Both the position numbers and the translations under genes were made by a program. This document shows positions 33,129 to 44,151 of a stretch of 64,000 bases of DNA, one piece after another. Origin of the DNA: Dictyostelium discoideum. Taxonomy: Eukaryota. The stretch covers positions 640,001 through 704,000 of the forward strand of contig CM000155.2 of NCBI GenBank assembly GCA_000004695.1, given 5' to 3'. The notes under the pieces are model-generated. The model ran no database searches and was not told the DNA's origin. It was given only the letters and a program-made list of their open reading frames with translations. The number at the start of each line of letters is the position of its first letter. Within the stretch, counting starts at the first letter, position 1.

Positions 33129-33729
33129 TCTAAATATTTATTAATTTGTTTTTTTTTTTTTTTTTTTCTTTATTTCAACAAATGAAAAAACAATAGTGAA
33201 AAAAAAAAAATCAAAGAAAATTTAAAAATGAAATTTTTATTTTTTTTTTTATTTTTTTTTATTTTATTTTATTTTATTTCGCATAAAAGTAATAATTTAA
33301 AAGATTGTGATTGAAAATGACTGGGGGATAAGGGATTATTATAATTTGGTATTTAATTTATAAAAACAAAATATGTTGATCCTATGTTGTCTAATATTTT
33401 TTATTTTTTAGATCTATTTTTATTATTTTTTATTATTTTTTATTATTTTTTATTTTTTATTTTTTTTTTTAAATTTTATCACCATCTGTTTTTTTTTTAA
33501 CCCAAAAACTTTATTTTTAGAATTCAATTATTCGCCATTCATTTTTTGTAATTGAAGGGAATAAATTTTATTAAAAAAAATTGATTTTAATTTATTTATT
33601 TTTTTTTTTTTTTAAAAAAAGACAAATAGGTCAACAGAATATAAAATTTAAATTAAACAGTATTAATAAAAAAAAAAAAAAGTTGGAATAACAATTATAA
33701 TTTTATATTTATTTTATTTTTAATATTTT

Positions 33730-33769
<40 letters not shown>

Positions 33770-33795
33770 AAATTCGAATGATAAGAATATTTTAT

Positions 33796-35024
33796 TCAAT
33801 CAGCAGTTTTCTTTTCCTTGTCCGAAGTAGATAAATTCTTTAAAAGATCAAGCAATTCATCTGCACCATCACTACCATCTCCACCATTATCATCACTTTC
33901 ATCACTTTCATAATAGTTATCTGAATTGATTTCTGGTTTATATTTATCATCCCCAATATAAAATCTTCTATGTTTTCCAGAATCATAAAAAAACACATCG
34001 TCTTTATATGCTGATTTAATCTTTTCTTTATATACAAGAATTAGAGAATGATCATTATCATTCAGATCCATTTCACCATCAGTACAAACCATTCTTAATT
34101 TTTTTGCAATTATTTTGAAATCCTCCAAGATTTCATGTGATTTTTTGAAAACAAATTCCATTGGACTCTCACCATTCTCAATTTTCATTATTCCTGCCTT
34201 CTGTTGATGTTTATATCCCGTATATCTTTGATTGTTAAAAAAAATTCTTTTTTCCAAAGTGTATCCGGCAATAAATGGACTTTCGATAATATTATTCCTT
34301 GTTGGAATATGGTATGATACGTTGGATCATCTTTTTTAGTCTGAGAGATTATCAAATGTACCTTGTCACCCAATCTTTGAACTTTAGAACATGATAAACA
34401 GAAATCACTAATCAAATTAGGAAGACTTGGATCCATAAATGAACTTCTATCATGAGGCATTGACCAATATATTTTTGAATATCTTTCATTTGATTCATGT
34501 ATTTTTGTTGCATCTAATCCAAAAATAACAGTACATTCAGAAATTATTAAAAATTCAATATTTTTAATTGTCAACAAACAGTTATCACATTTTTTAACAT
34601 TATCTTCACAACATCCGTAGGTTGTAACTCCAGTTTTTATAAGTACATCCTTATGAACTTTAAATTTATTGTAAACTGTTTGGGAAATATATAAATCTGA
34701 AGCGGTTATTTTTAAAAATTTCCCATCATTTGTGTGATGATTTTGGTTATGTTTTTCCAATAAAGAAGTTGAAAATGAGAAATTTCCTTCGCCTACAAAT
34801 AAAATTTTATGATGTCTCTCTGCTTTACATTTCGAAAGTGGGGCTCTAGTTTGGAGGAAAAAAAAATAAAAAAAAAAAAAATAAAAATAATTTAAAATGA
34901 TAAATTCAAATTTAAAATAATTTGGAAATTAAATATTTTATTCTAATAATTACTTGGTTTCAGATTTAGACACTCTTTTAGAAATTTCAGATATTTTTTT
35001 TTTATTTGGTTGAGGTGTATACAT
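33796..35024 (-). pseudogene. DUF2431/BMT5-like putative methyltransferase, array copy 1, frameshifted; exon-1-like 35024..34954 and body 34845..33796
   Basis: Same two-exon layout as the intact copy: MYTPQPNKKKISEISKRVSKSETK then GTAATT intron, then APLSKCKAERHHKILFVGEGNFSFS.... The reading frame breaks near 34190-34260 because of a 7 bp deletion relative to copy 2 (CAAGG-A-ATAATATTATCG versus CAAGGCTGTGTATATAATATTATCG). This splits the body into ORFs 34188..34760 and 33796..34257. Confidence 0.6.
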
Positions 35025-35535
35025 TTTCAAATATATATATTTTATTTGATAGGTTGTTTTTTTAAAAAAAAAAAAAAAATTTTAGTTCATTGTTTTTTTT
35101 ATCTTATTTTTTTAAATTTTTTTTTTTTAATTTTTTTTTTTTAATTTTTTTAATTTATTTTATTATTTAAAATTGATTTATCAGGTCAATTTCATATAAA
35201 TTTCATAAAATTCTCAATAAAATTGGTTTGATTTTAAAATTAAAAAAAAAAAATTAAAAAAAAAAAAATTTTTTTAAAAATTTGATAAAAAAAACTTTAA
35301 TCAATAATTTTTATTTTTTTATTTTTTTTTATTTAAAATTGATTTGGGTGGTCTTTCGTATAAAAATAAACTTTAAAAAAAGAATGATCCAAATGTTTTT
35401 GAAATGATTAATTTAAAATAATTTTGAAATTAAATATTACTTGGTATCAGATTTAGACTCTCTTTTAAAAATTTCAATTTTTTTTTTAATTTGGTTGGGG
35501 TATATCTTAAAATATTTTATTTGATAGGTTGTTTG

Positions 35536-35584
<49 letters not shown>

Positions 35585-35931
35585 TTTTCAAAGTTTTTTT
35601 TTATATTATTTTTTAAATTTTTTTTTTTTTTTTATAATTAAAAATTGGTTTGTGTGCCAATTTCATATAATTCTCATAAAATTCTTAATAAAACTAATTT
35701 TTTTAAAACTCTCAATAAAATGGGTTTGTTTAAAATTAAAAAAAAAAAAAATTTTAAAAATAAGATAAAAAAAACTTATATTCATTTAAAATTGATTTGT
35801 TCTGTTAATTATAAAAATCTCATATGAAATTCTAAATAATAAAATAAATATATAAAAAAAAAAGAGTGATCCAGAATTCTACATTAGGAGCATTTGATGA
35901 TACAACTTTCTTTACCAAGGAAGGTTCGCCT

Positions 35932-36032
35932 GAGCCACTTTAGAAATTTGAGATCTGAAAAATTGAGACCACTTTGGGAATTTGAGATTTAAAAAATTGA
36001 GACCACTTTAGAAATTTGAGAATTAAAAAATT
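35932..36032 (+). repeat. 33-34 bp tandem repeat x3 (GAGACCACTTTAGAAATTTGAGATTTAAAAAATT)
   Basis: Three near-identical direct copies seen in sequence, inside the ectopic copy of the 41611..44151 gene tail. Confidence 0.8.
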
Positions 36033-36340
36033 TGAGATTTGAGTATCTAAAAGAAATCAAATTTGAAATTAAATTTACTCTTAATCATATTAAAAAAAAT
36101 TATTAACCAATGATTTTAATAAAATACCAAATGAATTCTCCAAACCAAAAGGGAAAAAAAAAAAAAAAAGTTGGAAATACAATTATAATTTCATTTTAAT
36201 TTTTTTTTTTATTTTTAAATTGAAACTTTTGGTTATGTTTTTTCAAAAATGATGTTGAAAATGAGAAATTTCCTTCACCTACAAATAATATTTTATGATG
36301 TCTCCCTGCTTTAAATTTTCGTAGTGGAGCTCTAATTTAG

Positions 36341-36394
<54 letters not shown>

Positions 36395-36970
36395 TAAAAT
36401 GATAAATTTAAAATAATTTGGAAATTAAATATTTAATTAAATAATTACTTGGTATCAGATTTAGATACTCTTTTTAGAAATTTTAAATATTTTTTTTTTT
36501 ATTTGGTTGAGGTGTATACATTTAAAATATAAATTTTATTTGATAGGTTGGTCAAAAAAAAAAAAAAAAAAAAAAAATTTTTTTTTTTATTTTTTAATCT
36601 TATTTATAGTGATGCCAAAAAGTTTTATTTTGGCTTAAGTTTTTAAAATTGATTTTTATAAATCTCATAAAATTCTCAATAAAATGGTGATTTAAATTTT
36701 TTTTAAATTAAATTTTTTTTTTTATTTTTTTTTTTTAATTTAAATTTTTTTTTTTTTTTTAATATTAATTTTTTTATTTTATTTTTTTTTTTTATTATAA
36801 AGCTCTAAAAATGAAGTTGGTATTTTAATTGATTTAAAAAATTTGAGATTTGAGGCAGTGTATAAAAGAAATCAAGTTTGAAATTAAATTAAAAAATTTA
36901 CTCTTAATCATATTGAAAAAAATTATTAACCAATGATTTTAATAAAATACCCAATGAATTCTCCTATCAG

Positions 36971-37004
<34 letters not shown>

Positions 37005-37352
37005 GAAAATACAATTCCAATTTCATTTTAATTTTTTTTTTTTTTTTATTATTAAATTGAAATGATAAGAATATTTTATTCATACATTAGTTTTCAATTG
37101 TTTTATTTTAAAATTGGTAAATTCTTAAAAAAAAAAAAAAAATAAATTAAAAAATAAAAATAAATTAAAAAATAAATTAAAAATAAAATTTTTTTTTTTT
37201 TTAATTTAAAAAAATAAGATAAAAAAAACTTTGATCAATTTTTTTTTTTTTTTATATTCATTCATTTAAAATTGATTTGTGTGGTAATTCATATAAATCT
37301 CATATAAAATAATTAATATTATATAAATTTAATATATTAAAAAAAAAAAAAA

Positions 37353-37943
37353 ATGAATGATTCAGATGTTTTTAAAATTTTACTAATTGGTGATTCAGCA
37401 GTTGGAAAAACATCGTTATTATTAAGATTTACAGATCCCAATAATTTTCAAGAGACTTCAGTAAATATGACTAGTGTTGATTATAAAAATAAAAATATAA
37501 CTATTGATGGAAGAACATTTAATTTACAAATTTGGGATACAGCAGGACAAGAGAGATTCAGAACAATTACATCATCTTTTTATAGAGGAGCACATGGTGT
37601 TTTAGTATGTTATGATGTCACTGATCAACTTACATATAATAACGTTGGGTTATGGATGCAAGAAATTCAAAGATATGGAGTACTTGGAGTTAGTAGAGTT
37701 TTAGTTGGAAACAAATGTGATCTCGAAGATAGAAAATTGGTTAACGCTTCAATTGCCCAAGAATACGCTGATATTCTCGGTATTCCATTCATTGAAACTT
37801 CTGCTACAACTGGTGTTAATGTAGAAGAGGCTTTCATGGCAATGGCAGATGAAATTTATAGAAATCATATAGGTGGCTCAAAACCTTCTGTTGTAAAACC
37901 AGTATGTGGAAGTCCTCCCCGCACGAAAAAAAATATTTGCTAA
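37353..37943 (+). CDS. Rab-family small GTPase, single exon
   Basis: GDSAVGKT (G1), WDTAGQE (G3), GNKCD (G4), ETSAT (G5). Rab-family motifs RFRTIT and YRGAHG are present. It lies inside the tandem array, 35 bp downstream of one copy of the ATTGATTTG... motif. Confidence 0.85.
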
Positions 37944-38056
37944 TTTTAAAGAAGAGTGGATAGAAGAAGGAGGGTTTTTGCCAATTATTTTAAAGTTTCA
38001 TATAATTGCAACATCAAAAAATAAATAAAAAAATATAAAATGTAAAATTTAAATGG

Positions 38057-38097
<41 letters not shown>

Positions 38098-38304
38098 AAA
38101 CTTTTTTTAGTTTTTTTAATCAATTCCTTATTTCTATTTAGTTTATTAATAGTTCTTTTTTTTTATTTTCATAATTATCTTATTTTTTTATTTTTTTTTA
38201 TTTAAAATATAGAACATATTTATATTTCAATAAATATGTTATATATGTTTCTTATTTTTATTAAATTGAAAAGATAAGAATATTTGATCCAAACAAAATT
38301 TTTC

Positions 38305-39554
38305 TTATAATTGTCTATTTTTGTCTGAAGTGGATAAATTCTTAAAATTATTGAAAAATGATTCATCTTCACTATCATCATGATTATCACCATGATCATC
38401 ATGATCATCATAATAGTCATCTGAGCCAAACTCTGGTTCATAATCATCATCTCCAATATAATAACGTCTATAGCCTTCTTTTTCATAATACCTTAATTTC
38501 TTATATGATGATTGAATCTTGGTTTCATATTTATTACTTATAACTTTATCATTTCCTTGAAGATCTATTTCCCCAACAGTTCTTAATTTTAAAGCAACAT
38601 TTTTGTATTTTTCTAAAACTTTTCCAGATTTTTTGAAAACAAATTCCATTCGATGTTTTCCATTCTCAACTTGGTCTGTTCCTTCTGTCTGTTGATGTTT
38701 ATATCCCTTATATCTTTGATCGTCAAAATAATATCTTTTTTCCAAAGTGTATCCAGCAATAAATGGGCTTTCGATAATATTATATACACAGCCTTGTTGG
38801 AATTCGGTATGATAGGTTTTTTTTCGATGTATCAAATTTTGAGAGATTATCAAATGTACCTTGTCACCCAATTTTTGTACTTGAGAACATGATAAACAGA
38901 AATCACTTATCAAATTAGGGAGACTTGGTGTTGAATATTTAGTTCTATCATGAGGCATTGACCAATATATTTTTGAATATTTTTCGGTTGATTCATGTAT
39001 TTTTTTTGCATCTAATCCAAAAATTACTTGGCAATCGAATTTTATTAAATAATTAATATTTTCAATTGTTAACAAACAGTTTTCACATTTTTTATCAGCT
39101 TTTGGTCCACAAAAATCTTCAGGACATTGGTATTTTTCAACTCCAGTTTCTTTAAGTACATATCCACAATCTTCGAATACTTTAAAAACAGTTTCACATA
39201 CAAATAAATCTGAAGCGGTTATTTTTAAAAGATTATTATCATTTGTGTGAAATTTTTGGTTATGTTTTTTCAATAAAGATGTTGAAAATGAGAAATTTCC
39301 TTCACCTACAAATAAAATTTTATGATGTCTCTCTTCTTTACATTTTGATAGTGGAGCTCTAATTTAGAAATAAAAAAAAAAAAAAAATAAAAAAAAAAAT
39401 AAAAAAAAAAAAAAAAAAAAAATAAATTTTTAATAATTAATTTTTAATAATTTGGAAATTAAATGTTTTAATTAAATAATTACTTTGTATCAGATTTAGA
39501 CACTCTATTAGAAATTTCAGATATTTTTTTTTTATTTGGTTGAGGTGTTAACAT
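38305..39554 (-). CDS. DUF2431/BMT5-like putative methyltransferase, intact array copy; exons 39554..39484 and 39358..38305
   Basis: Exon 1 MLTPQPNKKKISEISNRVSKSDTK ends in an ACAAA|GTAATT donor. A 125 bp intron ends in an AAATTAG acceptor. Exon 2 begins (K)APLSKCKEERHHKILFVGEGNFSFSTSLL, the hallmark N-terminus of the BMT5/DUF2431 family, and continues through KIYWSMPHDR and GDKVHLIISQ into an acidic YYDDHDDHGD tail. The ORF is uninterrupted. Confidence 0.65.
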
Positions 39555-40075
39555 TTTCAAATATATAAATATTTTATATGATAGGTTGATGAAAAAAAAA
39601 AATTTTTTTTAAAATAAGATAAAAAAACTTAAGGGTTCTAAAATAAAAAAAAAAAGCCAATAATTTTTTTTTTTTAATTTAATTTTATTCCAAATTGATT
39701 TGTCTGGCTAATTTCATCTAAATCTCATTTTGTTTTTATTAAAATTTCATTAAATTTTAAATAAAAAAAAAAAAATTAAAAAAAATAAGATCTAACCTTC
39801 GCGTTTTTTTTGAGGTTGCTTTTTTAAAATTTTGAATTTTTTTTTTTTTTTTTTCTTTTAAAATTTATCATATCATTACCATTTAAAACTTCAAATAATG
39901 ATTTGCACTTTGGGACCCACTATAATTTGTTCAAATAATTGTTTTGTTTCGAAAAAAAAAAAAATAAAAAAAAAAAAGGTTGGAAATACAATTATAATTT
40001 TATTTTATTTTAATTTTAATTTTTTTTAATTTTTTTTGCTTTTTTTATTAAATTGAAATGATATGAATCTTTGAT

Positions 40076-41051
40076 TCAGAGAGCAGTTTTCTTATAATTG
40101 TCTACTATTGTCTGAAGTGGATAAACTCTTAAAACTATTGAGAGATGATTCATATTCACTATATCAGAGTTGAATTGTGGTTGATAATCATCATCTCCAA
40201 TATAATAACGTCTAATGCCCTCTATATCAAAATACAATAAGTTATATGATGACTGAATCATGATTTTATATTCATTAATTCTATCTTCGTCATCTCCTAG
40301 AAGATCTATTATAAAAAATCTTCTAAATTTTGATGCAACATTTTTGTAATTTTCTAAAATTATACCAGATTTTTTGAAAACAAATTCCATTAGACCTACA
40401 CTATCAACTGTCATTGTTCCTTGTGTATTTTGATGTTTATATCCCTCATATCTATTATTCTTAAAATGAATTCTTTTTTCCAAAGTGTACCCAGCCTTCA
40501 ATAATATTGTAAACAATGCCTTGTTGGGATTGGGTATGAATGGCTGAATAATCATCTTTATAAACTTGAGCGATTATAAAATGTACCTTGTCACCCAATT
40601 TTTGTGCTTCAGAACATGATAAACAGAGATCACCAATCAAATGAGGAAGAGTTCCTTTTTTAAATGAACTATTAGGCATTGACCAATATTTTTGAATATT
40701 TTTCATTTGATTCATGTATTTTTCTTGCATCTAATCCAAAAATAACTTTGCATTGAGAATTTATTAAAAATTTAATATTTTCAATTGTCAACAAACAGTT
40801 TTCACTTTTATTATCATCTTTTGTTCCACAATATTCCTTAATACATTTGAAGATTTTAACTCCAGTTTCTTTAAGTACATCTCCACAATCTTTGAATTCA
40901 TTAAAAACAGTTTCACACACATAAATCTGAAGCGGTTATTTTTAAAAATTGATTATCATTTGTATAAAGATGTTGAAAATGAGAAATTTCCTTCACCAAC
41001 AAATAATATTTTATGATGTCTCTGCTTTACATTTTGGAATTTGATTTTTAA

Positions 41052-41087
<36 letters not shown>

Positions 41088-41216
41088 ATTTAAAATGGTT
41101 AATCTAAAATAATTTGGAAATTAAATATATTAATTAAATAACTACTTTGTATCAGATTTATAGACTGTTTTAGAAATTTCTGTTATAATTTCTATATCTG
41201 GTTGAGGTGTATTCAT
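40076..41216 (-). pseudogene. DUF2431/BMT5-like array copy 3, multiply frameshifted and internally deleted
   Basis: Homologous to copy 2 but split over ORFs 40672..40920, 40461..40730 and 40076..40555. The region after FSFSTSL is deleted. The exon-1-like segment at 41216..41146 reads MNTPQPDIEIITEISKTVYKSDTK. Confidence 0.6.
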
Positions 41217-41610
41217 TTTCAAATATATATTTTATTTGATTGGAATTTATTAAATTATAAAGTAAAAAATTTAAAAAAAAAAACTTTTAACAATAGTTAT
41301 TTTTTTTTTTTTTTAAAATTTAATTTTTTTAAAATAAATTTATTTTAATAATTCTCAGATTTGTGAGAAAAAAAAATAAAATAAAAAAATAAAAATAAAT
41401 TCTAAAAATAATTATCAAATGTTTTATTTTTATTTTTTTATTTTTATTTTTTTTTTCTCATAATCTGAGAAAAAAGATTTTTTCCCCACCCGATTTATCA
41501 ATTAAATCAAAATATTTTAATAATTGATTAATGGGGGAAAAAAAAAATAAAAAAAAAAAAAAAATTTTATTTATTTAATTTTTTTAAACTTTTTTTATTT
41601 TTTTTTTTTT

Positions 41611-44151
41611 TTAGAATCTGTTTTTAACACCACTTAAAAAATAATCATAAATTATAGAATCATTATTATCCTTAAAATATTGATTACAAAGCTCTACAAA
41701 TAAAGTTGGTCTTTTAATTGATTCAAAAAATTTGAGATTTGTGGCAGTGTCTAAAGAAATCAAATTTGAATATGATACTGAAATTAACTCTTCAGCATAT
41801 TTAAATAATAAATTATTAACCAATGATTTTAATAAATCACCAAATGAATTCTTGAAACTACCACATGAACAATTCCTTCCAAAAATAAATTCAAATGAGA
41901 ATATATTTGGTAATAAATAATTTCTAATTTGATAAGAAATTGAATTATTATTATTATTATTATTAAGAGTGACAGGAGGTGTTTGAATATTTGAATATTG
42001 TTTATTACAATCATAAAATCTACTATAAGGGATAGTAGTTTCGTGTGGAAATGATAGTATATATTTTGTAAACTTTGGAGATCTAATATGAAGAAAATAA
42101 AATGTTTCATATAATCCAGGTTCACTGAACCAACTTGGGTAACCAGTATTTCCATTATTAATATATTGGTGTACTGATTCCATCATTTCAATTGTAAAAC
42201 CTTTATGTTGAATTAATTTTCTATAAAGATGTTGAATCATTATGTTAATACCATTACTAAAAGGCACATATTCTTTAAATCTATCATAAAATGATTTTAT
42301 TAGAGTGATCATTGCAGTAATATCGGTAGCAACTTTACCATCACCATTACCATTATTACTATCATCATCACCATAATGATATATTATACGATTAGCTCCA
42401 TATCCATGTTTGAAAATGATTGCTTTAGTATTAATTGAAGGATTATAAGATTCAACTAAATCATCGAATATATTTGAATCAAATTTAACCTTTTTACAAC
42501 AATTATTTAATAAAAATTGTAATTGAATTAAATCCAATTTAAAAATTGAATTTACAATAATTTCTTGAATCTCTTTAATTTTGAAATTCTCTTCAATTTT
42601 AAATTCTAAAAATGCTGCTTCTGTTGCTGATGATGATGATGATTGTGATGATTTATAATATCGAACTAATTGATTATAAAATCTTTTTAAATTTTCATTT
42701 GTAAAACTTTTAAATTTTGATTGATTTAAATAATTTAATAATTTAATAATTTGTTTAATTGGAGTATTTGGTAAAATGAAATCATCATCATCATTATCAT
42801 TATCATTATCATTAGATTGAAAGTCTAAAACTTTAATATTTAATGAATCTATAATTTTCAAATTATTTAAATCACATTGTTGGATTGATTTCTTGAATAG
42901 GTATCTAAATATATACTCTTTTGATTGTTGCTCTACTTGTATTGAATTCTCTTTGCCTTTTAAATAAAATGATTGAATTGATTTAAAAGAATTTAATTGA
43001 CCTGTTACTTCTTTACTATCATTATTATTATTATTATTATTATTACTATTATTATTATTAAAATTATATGCATATTGAATTATTTGAAAATCAGTAAAAA
43101 CAATAGAATGATCATTTAATAATACTGATAAAATAACTTTATTTTCAAATGAAATTAACCAATTTATAATTAATTTATCAGATATTATTAATGAATAAGA
43201 TTGTTGTTTTTCTAAATTTTGATTATTATTATTATTTTTAATATATTTTAAAATTGGAAACATATGAAATTTCTTTAAATTCATTTTCTTTTTATATTCA
43301 TTATAAAAATTAATTATAAATGGTATTGAAATTGATGGTTTACTTAATTTAATATATCTTAAAAATGAAATTAAATAAGATTCATCAGAACCATCATTTT
43401 TATCTTTAAATTCATCTTTATTATCTTTGAATGCATTTAAATAATGATCACCATAATAAAATTCATCAAGTTCATCTTTACATTGATGAAATTCATCAAT
43501 TGATTCATTATATTTTAAAATGTAATCTTTATATAATTCTATTTGTTTTGTTTCAATAATTATAAATTTTTGTAATTTTTTTAATTTATATTTTTCAATA
43601 TCACAACTACTACCACTACTACCACTTTTACTACCACTACTACTACCACTACTACCACTACTATTGCTACTGATTTTTTTAATTTTATTATTAATTTTAT
43701 CTAATTTTGAATCAAGTGGTTTAATTGGTTTATTTAAAACATGGATTAAATTTGTTCTATGTGTAAATAATAATTCATCAAATGATTGATTAATTGTTAA
43801 ATTAAATGGTTTAGTGACGAAAAGACGATTTGTAAAGATTGATAAATCATAGATTTTATTTAATAAATTATAATTTTCAAAATCATATATTTTTCCAAAT
43901 GAAAAACTATTTTTTTCATCATTACATTTTGAATCGTATAAACCACTATTAAATAAGAAAAATTCTAATAATTGTTCTCTACTTTCTTCTCTATTCTTTA
44001 AAATTAATGATATTAATGTTTTATTTCCAATAAATGGTTCAACTTTTTCAATTTTACCATATTGTTGAATTTGAATTTTTATAAATTCTTTTATAAATTC
44101 GATACTTGAATATTTTAAAACATATTGTAAATTTGATGGTAAAACTTTCAT
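41611..44151 (-). CDS. Hypothetical large Asn-rich protein, 846 aa
   Basis: Long uninterrupted ORF with coding-type composition. No domain recognised. Its last ~190 bp of coding sequence has diverged non-coding copies at 35880-36135 and 36788-36975. In frame upstream of the ATG, the (AAT)n repeat reads as poly-N back to a stop at 44371, with no ATG. Confidence 0.55.
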   Translation of the reverse strand: MKVLPSNLQYVLKYSSIEFIKEFIKIQIQQYGKIEKVEPFIGNKTLISLILKNREESREQLLEFFLFNSGLYDSKCNDEKNSFSFGKIYDFENYNLLNKIYDLSIFTNRLFVTKPFNLTINQSFDELLFTHRTNLIHVLNKPIKPLDSKLDKINNKIKKISSNSSGSSGSSSGSKSGSSGSSCDIEKYKLKKLQKFIIIETKQIELYKDYILKYNESIDEFHQCKDELDEFYYGDHYLNAFKDNKDEFKDKNDGSDESYLISFLRYIKLSKPSISIPFIINFYNEYKKKMNLKKFHMFPILKYIKNNNNNQNLEKQQSYSLIISDKLIINWLISFENKVILSVLLNDHSIVFTDFQIIQYAYNFNNNNSNNNNNNNNDSKEVTGQLNSFKSIQSFYLKGKENSIQVEQQSKEYIFRYLFKKSIQQCDLNNLKIIDSLNIKVLDFQSNDNDNDNDDDDFILPNTPIKQIIKLLNYLNQSKFKSFTNENLKRFYNQLVRYYKSSQSSSSSATEAAFLEFKIEENFKIKEIQEIIVNSIFKLDLIQLQFLLNNCCKKVKFDSNIFDDLVESYNPSINTKAIIFKHGYGANRIIYHYGDDDSNNGNGDGKVATDITAMITLIKSFYDRFKEYVPFSNGINIMIQHLYRKLIQHKGFTIEMMESVHQYINNGNTGYPSWFSEPGLYETFYFLHIRSPKFTKYILSFPHETTIPYSRFYDCNKQYSNIQTPPVTLNNNNNNNSISYQIRNYLLPNIFSFEFIFGRNCSCGSFKNSFGDLLKSLVNNLLFKYAEELISVSYSNLISLDTATNLKFFESIKRPTLFVELCNQYFKDNNDSIIYDYFLSGVKNRF

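Follow-up and report, generated by a model that had tools for sequence, protein, structure and literature searches.

A tandem family of BMT5-like methyltransferase genes that differs between strains of Dictyostelium discoideum, and its bacterial relatives

Organization of the array

The 64-kb window analysed here (positions 640,001 to 704,000 of contig CM000155.2, assembly GCA_000004695.1; all coordinates below are those of the window) lies on chromosome 6 of Dictyostelium discoideum AX4. Its minus strand carries, from 33.6 to 41.3 kb, three full-length BMT5-like (PF10354) genes and three truncated relics of such genes, which make up a tandem family of BMT5-like class I S-adenosylmethionine (SAM)-dependent methyltransferases that very probably evolves by birth and death under weak selection. 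The units and their 3′ elements are the following:

33682..33703, minus strand: 3′ element of copy 1 (GTTGGAATAACAATTATAATTT on the plus strand, 2 mismatches)
33796..35024, minus strand: copy 1, full-length pseudogene (exon 1 35024-34954, intron 34953-34846, exon 2 34845-33796)
35405..35505 (about), minus strand: relic A, 5′ part of the intron and a degenerate exon 1 whose ATG is lost
36170..36521, minus strand: relic B, an internally deleted copy (3′ element 36170-36191, stub of the 3′ untranslated region, ~110 bp of the start of exon 2, intron, exon 1)
37002..37130, minus strand: relic C, 3′ element (3 mismatches) and last ~15 codons/stop region of a lost copy
38305..39554, minus strand: copy 2 (DDB_G0291740), sole intact AX4 gene, open frame of 374 amino acids (aa)
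39979..40000, minus strand: 3′ element of copy 3, exact match
40076..41216, minus strand: copy 3, heavily damaged pseudogene, hybrid of two ancestral paralogues with a breakpoint between 40657 and 40606

A first-pass annotation, made from the DNA sequence alone, had described a tandem array of one repeated architecture, with full-length units and two to three solo fragments. Self-comparison of the window recovers the repeated units, with the main elements where that annotation had placed them. We retained only matches with at least nine matched G/C positions, since a permissive self-BLASTN is flooded by A/T-rich low-complexity matches (the G+C content of the window is ~22%, and the cluster has a host-like base composition). 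Three partial units (relics A, B and C) are found, every methyltransferase-like unit of the window is on the minus strand, and tblastn of the 64-kb window detects no methyltransferase copies beyond those listed.

Copy 2 consists of a 71-bp exon 1 (39554-39484), an intron (39483-39359, GTAATT...AG) and exon 2 (39358-38305). As had been proposed, it is the only copy with an open frame; its product is 100% identical to DDB_G0291740 of D. discoideum AX4. It matches the PF10354 profile in two stretches (E=9.8e-16, 58.9 bits for a gathering cut-off of 24.7), in line with the earlier assignment to DUF2431/BMT5, and the same label is precomputed on proteins P0001-P0008. The architecture attributed to all full-length units holds only in part: the GTAATT donor is present in copy 2, but copy 3 has a GTAGTT donor and a different exon 1 peptide (MNTPQPDIEIITEISKTVYKSDTK). 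Similarly, the 22-nt 3′ element described as conserved (GTTGGAAATACAATTATAATTT) occurs four times in the window, against 0.03 occurrences expected by chance, but is missing downstream of copy 2.

Two pseudogenes, one recently disabled and one long dead

We compared the AX4 window with four further assemblies, L001 (GCA_054859355.1), L002 ('D. cf. discoideum'), L003 (GCA_054883475.1) and L004 (GCA_054859385.1). L003 aligns colinearly with 16 kb of the window (99.3% identity). Compared base by base with window positions 33600-41650, it exhibits 16 differences, all located in homopolymer runs or in intergenic/intronic sequence, and none in the coding parts of copies 1 and 3. Since identical lesions are present in an independent assembly, an assembly artefact is excluded. 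GCA_054883475.1 is probably the genome of strain AX2-214 (we infer this match of accession to strain), which was sequenced with Nanopore and Illumina (PMC12745789). AX2 and AX4 share the NC4 ancestor, and the L003 match therefore has no bearing on the species-wide fixation of the lesions.

Copy 1 runs from an ATG at 35024 to a stop at 33796; the unit had been recognized previously, with a start at about 35035 that is corrected here. Relative to its intact 362-aa orthologue in L001, copy 1 contains a single uncompensated frameshift, a 7-bp deletion between 34297 and 34296, which is the lesion previously said to split the gene. The remaining apparent shifts correspond to paired alignment artefacts in divergent stretches, and in tblastn the copy changes frame once, near residue 215. 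The AX4 annotation contains this pseudogene in pieces: DDB_G0291770 (242 aa) is its N-terminal part, read out of frame past the deletion, and DDB_G0291736 (98 aa) is very probably its residual C-terminal open reading frame (ORF), judging from a 98-aa residual ORF that starts from MVCTDG, a match to residues 284-372 of copy 2 and a location on the same chromosome. The sequence of protein P0008 is that of the truncated N-terminal product.

It is hardly credible that copy 1 still works, with its frameshift explained by a sequencing error, a hidden intron or translational bypass. The copy has only one lesion, with all conserved motifs intact on either side, and in the sister assembly an annotation pipeline gave it a gene model of 341 aa. 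Yet the deletion, for which a homopolymer assembly error had been considered, lies outside any homopolymer and is identical in the independent Nanopore and Illumina assembly, and comparison with any intact relative shows it to be a loss of sequence, conserved codons (QQG[KV]YNII) included. No GT...AG intron is able to restore these codons, and the truncated product is predicted to be devoid of the last strands of the methyltransferase fold. Rescue by an intron or by a programmed frameshift is ruled out because the lesion deletes conserved codons.

Copy 3, previously described as riddled with frameshifts and carrying an internal deletion, is indeed in this state: nine deletions (2, 26, 2, 2, 6, 11, 3, 3 and 40 bp), of which six are frameshifting and three in-frame, are present without a single insertion, and its intron acceptor AG is mutated to AA, so that the splice acceptor is lost. 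All nine length changes relative to the intact orthologue are deletions, against ~54 substitutions. This pattern points to a strong deletion bias or to a high indel rate in AT-rich sequence. Several lesions sit at AG, TA, AT or TAG repeats or at short microhomologies, a placement consistent with replication slippage. The last ORF of copy 3 (40076-40555) is annotated as DDB_G0291742 (159 aa). The reference annotation can thus be corrected: DDB_G0291770, DDB_G0291736 (with the reservation made above) and DDB_G0291742 do not stand for genes of their own but for parts of two pseudogenes.

Copy number and lesions vary between strains

The locus is syntenic in all assemblies, with genes for SMC, Mnd1, an ependymin-like protein and an 846-aa protein on one side and genes for a cyclophilin and an ABC transporter on the other. 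Full-length copies number two in L002, three in AX4/L003, three in L004 and four in L001. The L001 copies correspond to proteins of 365, 373, 379 and 362 aa, with a Rab gene between the third and the fourth; three of these four have a full-length ORF under the AX4 gene structure, and the model of the first one, g1, has to include one more intron, at a 1-bp deletion near codon 310. All three L004 copies appear damaged, by 86- and 10-bp deletions, by two single-base deletions and by a 424-bp deletion, respectively. One of the two L002 copies has a 7-bp deletion, at another site than that of copy 1.

According to best matches, AX4 copy 1 is orthologous to L001 g4 and L004 gC, copy 2 to L001 g3 and L004 gB, and copy 3 to L001 g2 and L004 gA. 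Orthology and lesions taken together indicate that different members were disabled by different lesions in different lineages. Copy number, lesions and hybrid genes (see below) all differ between strains, and this comparison directly shows the birth and death and the local instability suggested by the first-pass annotation. The same annotation called such a dense cluster uncommon in this genome, which is overstated: tandem duplicates are common in the Dictyostelium genome, as the 2005 genome paper is said to have reported. Loci of this kind, tandem families with unprocessed pseudogenes, hybrids and a copy number that depends on the strain, are well known.

Hybrid genes and pieces of neighbouring genes

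AX4 copy 3 is a hybrid at the sites that separate L001 g1 from L001 g2. Of the 92 informative sites in the 380 bp that precede the ATG, 76 agree with g1; over the following ~500-600 bp the sequence is chiefly g1-like with some g2-like patches; and from gene position ~600 to the 3′ flank nearly all sites are g2-like. L004 gA displays the same pattern in a sharper form (83/86 upstream sites are g1-like), with a different switch point, 510-580 instead of the 590-641 of g2 observed in AX4 (window 40657-40606). The simplest reading of these sequences is that the hybrids would have originated by unequal crossing-over between adjacent paralogues, a presumed mechanism in which one unit is removed. The differing breakpoints of the two hybrids indicate that such exchanges recurred.

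The relics are found together with pieces of the two genes that neighbour the methyltransferase copies:

35382..35405, plus strand: relic of the 5′ coding part of the Rab gene, fused to relic A (21/24 bases match 37355-37378, 0 expected by chance)
36025..36145, minus strand: first 3′ coding fragment of the 846-aa gene (80.7% identity to 41725-41858)
36791..36962, minus strand: second 3′ coding fragment of the 846-aa gene (84% identity to 41680-41852)
37353..37943, plus strand: Rab-family GTPase gene (PF00071 Ras, E=6e-55), inside the array and convergent with copy 2
41611..44151, minus strand: 846-aa ORF, upstream neighbour gene and source of the two dispersed 3′-end fragments

Around relic A, the segment 35360-35505 is 70-75% identical to exon 1 and the intron of copies 1-3, and the stretch ahead of the fused Rab relic (35236-35364) matches the sequence upstream of the Rab gene (37157-37297). 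Relic B retains an ATG at 36521, has one extra A in a poly-A run and has lost ~1 kb of exon 2; its segment 36221-36521 is 88% identical to 39248-39554 of copy 2, with the tblastn match RAPLRKFKAGRHHKILFVGEGNFSFSTSFLKKH. Relic C, which is 89% identical to 33742-33795 over 37026-37079, is also present beside the Rab gene in L001 and L004. The fragments of the 846-aa gene are located upstream of relics A and B, mirroring the real gene upstream of copy 3. The presence of neighbour-gene fragments and of a Rab relic beside the methyltransferase relics means that the duplication units were larger than the gene.

We propose that new units would arise by tandem duplication of segments extending past the gene, which could also take in a terminal part of a neighbour, from the 3′ side of the 846-aa gene or from the 5′ side of the Rab gene. 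Units would be lost either by unequal homologous recombination between neighbouring paralogues, producing hybrid genes, or by small deletions at short repeats or microhomologies. Under weak selection on the protein, copies would become pseudogenes independently in different strains, the outcome in AX4 being one intact gene, one recently disabled, one long-dead hybrid and three stumps. The locus is a compact, fully resolved example of tandem-family turnover in Dictyostelium, with pieces of neighbouring genes, hybrids, and a decay of the long-dead copy by deletions only.

The Rab gene, on the plus strand, breaks the array, a fact that the first-pass annotation had left unremarked; that annotation had also not noticed the neighbour-gene relics, the listing of pseudogene pieces as separate AX4 genes, the near-neutrality with which intact copies evolve, or the bacterial affinity described below. 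The Rab gene is found in four assemblies and is absent from the syntenic locus of L002. The C-terminus of its product is ...KKNIC, not two cysteines. The 200 bp located 5′ of the Rab gene are homologous to the 5′ flanks of the methyltransferase copies. A motif of ~60 nt, AAAATTGATTTGTGTGG.AATTTCATATAAATCTCATAAAATTCTCAATAAAAT, is common to 35168-35230, 35641-35700, 36645-36690, 37265-37310 and 39700-39760, that is, 130-170 bp ahead of the methyltransferase start codons and ~85 bp ahead of that of the Rab gene; the motif may act as a promoter element or have simply been duplicated with the rest of the unit.

The 846-aa ORF is rich in Asn/Ser runs, and a Pfam search of its sequence finds no domain. 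Beside its first fragment, positions 35930-36030 contain about three tandem copies of a ~33-bp unit (GAGACCACTTTAGAAATTTGAGAT...AAAAAATT), similar to the AAAAAATTTGAGATTTG stretch of the 846-aa gene (41735-41750); a related piece, CACTTTGGGA, is located upstream of copy 2 (39910-39925). In L002 (7419-9036), the gene model of the first copy (P0007) ends with an exon derived from the fragment of the 846-aa gene (...ESYNISINIKAIIFKIKYGHNFLMYHYGDD...), indicating that the fragment travels with the unit in this assembly too.

Weak constraint on the methyltransferase copies

All ratios of nonsynonymous to synonymous substitution rates (dN/dS) were estimated by one Nei-Gojobori procedure. Between AX4 and L001, dN/dS is 0.02 for the ABC transporter gene (dS 0.088) and 0.14 for the Rab gene (dS 0.129), which is under purifying selection. 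The corresponding values for the methyltransferase orthologues are 0.78 for copy 2 and L001 g3 (dS 0.13), 0.40 for copy 3 and L001 g2 (dS 0.106) and 0.87 for copy 1 and L001 g4 (dS 0.183). When all pairs of intact copies are considered, dN/dS ranges from 0.78 to 1.11 for the whole gene, from 0.48 to 0.90 for the catalytic core, from 0.60 to 2.58 for the Cys-rich insert and from 0.85 to 1.20 for the C-terminal third. The constraint on this family is weak at best; with four intact sequences available for the selection analysis, relaxed selection and a mixture of purifying and diversifying selection are not separable. The 846-aa neighbour gene evolves as fast as the methyltransferase copies between strains (dN/dS 0.9-1.3).

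These values also bear on a different explanation, in which the family is not decaying but undergoes diversifying selection at an arms-race locus tied to bacterial symbionts or pathogens, the pseudogenes being a by-product. We consider this clearly unlikely. It would account for ratios that reach or exceed 1 in the C-terminal part and in the Cys-rich insert, with lower values in the catalytic core, for the ~370-codon ORFs still open in several copies despite the AT-rich sequence, and for the dN/dS of ~1-1.3 of the 846-aa neighbour. The bacterial relatives of these proteins (see below) are moreover effector-like, with leucine-rich repeat (LRR)/Sel1 fusions, a plasmid location and several paralogues per genome, and Chlamydiae are common in wild D. 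discoideum (PMC8518690; 10.1101/2024.11.01.621453). However, a pairwise dN/dS of ~1 combined with many independent disabling lesions is what relaxed constraint predicts, all three L004 copies appear damaged, the function is putative, and four intact sequences are too few for a site-level test.

Some observations weigh against birth and death under weak selection as we present it, or at least temper it. Nei-Gojobori estimates are rough in a genome of ~22% GC; the two single-base deletions of L004 gB could be Nanopore read errors; the two hybrid copies could descend from one event, later altered by gene conversion, and not from two; and the intact copy could already be functionally dead, a dN/dS of 0.8-1.1 being compatible with this.

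Predicted fold and activity of the intact copy

The AlphaFold2 model of the copy 2 product (mean predicted local distance difference test score of 71.6, with core blocks at 80-94) consists of alternating strands and helices with both ends disordered, from which we predict a class I Rossmann-like methyltransferase fold. Foldseek comparison of this model with the PDB gives 628 matches at E<=0.001, and the top matches listed are all class I methyltransferases (TrmN, Trm11, TrmB, 16S m1A1408 methyltransferases, NNMT), with identities of at most 12%. These matches are generic for class I, and the structure is therefore silent on the substrate. A sequence search of the PDB returns no match, hence no solved structure of the family, and NCBIfam contains no model for it.

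No Dictyostelium copy, the repaired pseudogenes included, departs from the SAM-binding loop ILFVGEGNFSFS or from the KITASD motif, whose acidic residue follows strand 2. Nearly all relatives have an N(F/C)PH motif after strand 4 (FNFPH in fungal/animal proteins, HWNCPH in bacterial ones), which is SMPH (YWSMPH) in every Dictyostelium copy, with Asn replaced by Ser and Phe/Cys by Met. We infer that the intact copy still methylates something; the SMPH change, which, judging from sequence, may or may not keep catalysis, speaks against this. That the substrate would be an RNA base is a guess by analogy with yeast Bmt5.

Yeast Bmt5 (YIL096C), the founding and only characterised member of PF10354, is the N3-methyltransferase of 25S rRNA U2634 (m3U2634; PMC3950682), and UniProt names the Dictyostelium family '25S rRNA (uridine-N(3))-methyltransferase'. 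Besides this precedent and the PF10354 match, a class I fold closest to tRNA and rRNA methyltransferases would agree with copy 2 being a Bmt5 orthologue that acts as a housekeeping rRNA m3U methyltransferase. This is nevertheless very improbable: near-neutral evolution, variation in copy number and the possible lack of any intact copy in one strain are unlike a housekeeping enzyme, the Asn of N(F/C)PH is replaced, and copy 2 fits a profile of the endosymbiont subfamily described below far better than the general model (198 vs 59 bits). The Dictyostelium subfamily is most probably not the canonical rRNA enzyme. The UniProt name is probably misleading, and the genes, although already present in the reference annotation, are mis-split and probably misnamed there.

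Relatives in bacteria

An exhaustive HMMER search of 1.84 billion representatives gives 255 matches. The best ones outside Dictyostelium are metagenomic proteins (E 5e-34 to 1e-24, 34-40% identity) aligned in a single stretch across residues ~17-283. Three of these best-match proteins could be traced to contigs, all three bacterial: the neighbours are DnaA, MraZ, RsmH, a penicillin-binding protein (PBP) and MurE on the first contig and GidA and DnaB on the second, and the third carries a MobA/TraI-TraD conjugative element with AbiJ nearby (L006, Logan SRR20729862, 8001-9005). A scan of GTDB, with one genome per species, yields 14 loci in Parachlamydiaceae, Rhabdochlamydiaceae, Neptunochlamydia, other Chlamydiae and metagenome-assembled genomes (MAGs) labelled 'Verrucomicrobia'. 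Named members of the cluster include MGK5594149.1 from a Parachlamydiaceae bacterium and WP_010303915.1 from Ca. Odyssella thessalonicensis, an endosymbiont of Acanthamoeba. Some bacterial members are fused to LRR or Sel1 repeats (P0014, P0073), and pairs of paralogues are present within one genome or sample (L011 and L012; P0010 and P0017). The conjugative element, the fusions and the paralogues form a pattern typical of amoeba-associated secreted effectors, which suggests that these proteins may belong to this category.

The endosymbiont subfamily has features that are absent from canonical fungal/animal PF10354 proteins: a Cys/His motif before strand 1, a CxxC...CxxC insert, HW(N/S)CPHD and an acidic tail at the end of a C-terminal extension. 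With a profile derived exclusively from the bacterial sequences, six Dictyostelium proteins score 162-198 bits and canonical eukaryotic members 80-89 bits; the profile aligns with copy 2 in one stretch (residues 28-331, profile positions 10-278 of 305). The similarity to bacteria sets in four residues downstream of the single intron, and nothing in the bacterial proteins corresponds to exon 1.

In a neighbour-joining (NJ) tree (240 columns, 200 bootstraps) that includes 11 outgroups, ten canonical eukaryotic proteins and one unrelated bacterial DUF2431 protein, the monophyly of the Dictyostelium sequences is supported at 100% and their grouping with the endosymbiont subfamily at 78%. A node that excludes Neptunochlamydia from the group containing Dictyostelium obtains 86%, and a group of bacteria only is recovered in 3.5% of the replicates. 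Among named eukaryotes, protein-database searches detect the subfamily only in D. discoideum and 'D. cf. discoideum' (the genome DNA of D. citrinum, D. firmibasis, D. purpureum and other Amoebozoa was outside this search). A scan of JGI metagenomes with Dictyostelium-specific peptides gives no match, and a profile search of a word-indexed protein database returned almost only the input sequences. A scan of viral contigs produced one weak distant match, on the 37-kb contig IMGVR_UViG_3300033066_002000 (L022, 3001-3654), with 27% identity over residues 8-269.

Origin of the family

The Dictyostelium genes are integrated in their host: across five assemblies they are flanked by ABC transporter, cyclophilin, Rab and SMC genes, and they have a spliceosomal intron and a host-like composition. 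Contamination as the source of these bacterial-like genes is ruled out, given that they occur in five assemblies, have an intron and lie between host genes.

Moderate evidence from sequence comparison suggests a transfer from an intracellular bacterium into the D. discoideum lineage, with subsequent gain of the 5′ exon and the intron. As to the full scenario, we propose tentatively, at slightly less than an even chance, that an effector-like methyltransferase gene of a chlamydial or other endosymbiont entered the ancestral lineage of the D. discoideum clade, where a 5′ exon, an intron and a promoter were added from the host and the gene was amplified in tandem, and that it is now being lost or is evolving rapidly in a conflict with the symbionts that still have the family. 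Chlamydiae, among them Rhabdochlamydiaceae, are frequent in wild isolates of D. discoideum (PMC8518690; 10.1101/2024.11.01.621453; PMC12745789). Several points weigh against horizontal transfer: Dictyostelium forms a long branch, and identity to the nearest bacterial protein sampled reaches only ~40%; the NJ tree is simple, with weak support for the exact sister group; the absence from other dictyostelids rests on protein-database searches and one metagenome scan; and the direction is uncertain, a transfer from amoeba to bacteria being the reverse possibility.

The last point leads to a scenario in which the family would be an old, vertically inherited eukaryotic BMT5 paralogue, and endosymbionts would have taken the gene from their amoeba hosts. 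PF10354 is mainly eukaryotic, eukaryote-like genes are a known feature of amoeba endosymbionts, the NJ tree places fungal Bmt5-type proteins as the closest outgroup to the whole subfamily, and the base composition is fully host-like; the branch length and bacterial divergence just mentioned would fit as well. Vertical descent nonetheless appears somewhat unlikely, given that the named eukaryotic matches to the subfamily are confined to the D. discoideum clade and that the bacterial ones are spread over several chlamydial families, MAGs of the Planctomycetes-Verrucomicrobia-Chlamydiae (PVC) group and one alphaproteobacterium. In addition, Dictyostelium is nested in the bacterial sequences, not sister to them, in 96% of the bootstrap replicates, and the region shared with bacteria lies wholly in one exon, just after the only intron.

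In our literature search, neither these DDB genes nor a connection between DUF2431 and Chlamydiae came up in any paper. The possible bacterial origin deserves further study: if true, it would represent a recent and still-dynamic transfer from a bacterium to an amoeba, in a tractable host that naturally carries Chlamydiae, and the single intact AX4 gene would be an easy knock-out target for the role of the subfamily in host-symbiont biology.

Comparison with known systems

Like yeast Bmt5, the Dictyostelium proteins score above the PF10354 threshold and have a predicted Rossmann-like class I SAM fold, a glycine-rich loop (VGEGNFSF), an acidic residue following strand 2 and, behind strand 4, a PH-containing motif. 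The Dictyostelium match is distant, however (58.9 bits, two stretches), and FNFPH is changed to WSMPH; the Dictyostelium proteins also have a Cys-rich insert between strands 2 and 3 and a C-terminal extension of ~100 residues with an acidic tail. Bmt5 is a single conserved nucleolar enzyme, whereas the Dictyostelium family is multi-copy, fast-evolving and partly pseudogenised. FDXACB1 of animals, the other well-populated eukaryotic branch of PF10354, shares the domain with its VGEGNFSF and F-x-F-PH motifs, but has an FDX-ACB domain (PF03147) at its C-terminus and neither Cys insert nor acidic tail, and is placed away from the Dictyostelium clade in the tree.

The bacterial subfamily (also including loci L007-L020) is 30-45% identical to the Dictyostelium proteins across the domain and shares with them a start of the type C-x-G-x-H-K-x-R-L-F-V-G-E-G-N-F-S, the CxxC...CxxC insert, HW(N/S)CPHD, and the FYQGYVYNI and RYPGYxH motifs. 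Both have an acidic C-terminal tail, Ser-rich of the SSDY type in bacteria and Asp/Tyr-rich in Dictyostelium. The bacterial genes differ in being intronless and without the 24-residue peptide of exon 1, and some are fused to LRR/Sel1 or located on a conjugative element, whereas the Dictyostelium copies have Ser for Asn in the PH motif and form a long branch.

As for the locus itself, the closest parallel in our comparison is again from Dictyostelium: the allorecognition locus tgrB/tgrC, a hypermutable hotspot reported to contain gene duplicates and incomplete gene fragments (PMC12745789). That locus is located on another chromosome, involves another gene family and is far larger; moreover, tgr genes have a demonstrated function and show evidence of diversifying selection, whereas relaxed constraint fits at least equally well here. 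The two nevertheless have in common a gene complement that differs between close strains, the presence of duplicates, partial fragments and pieces of neighbouring genes, and a fast-evolving sequence.

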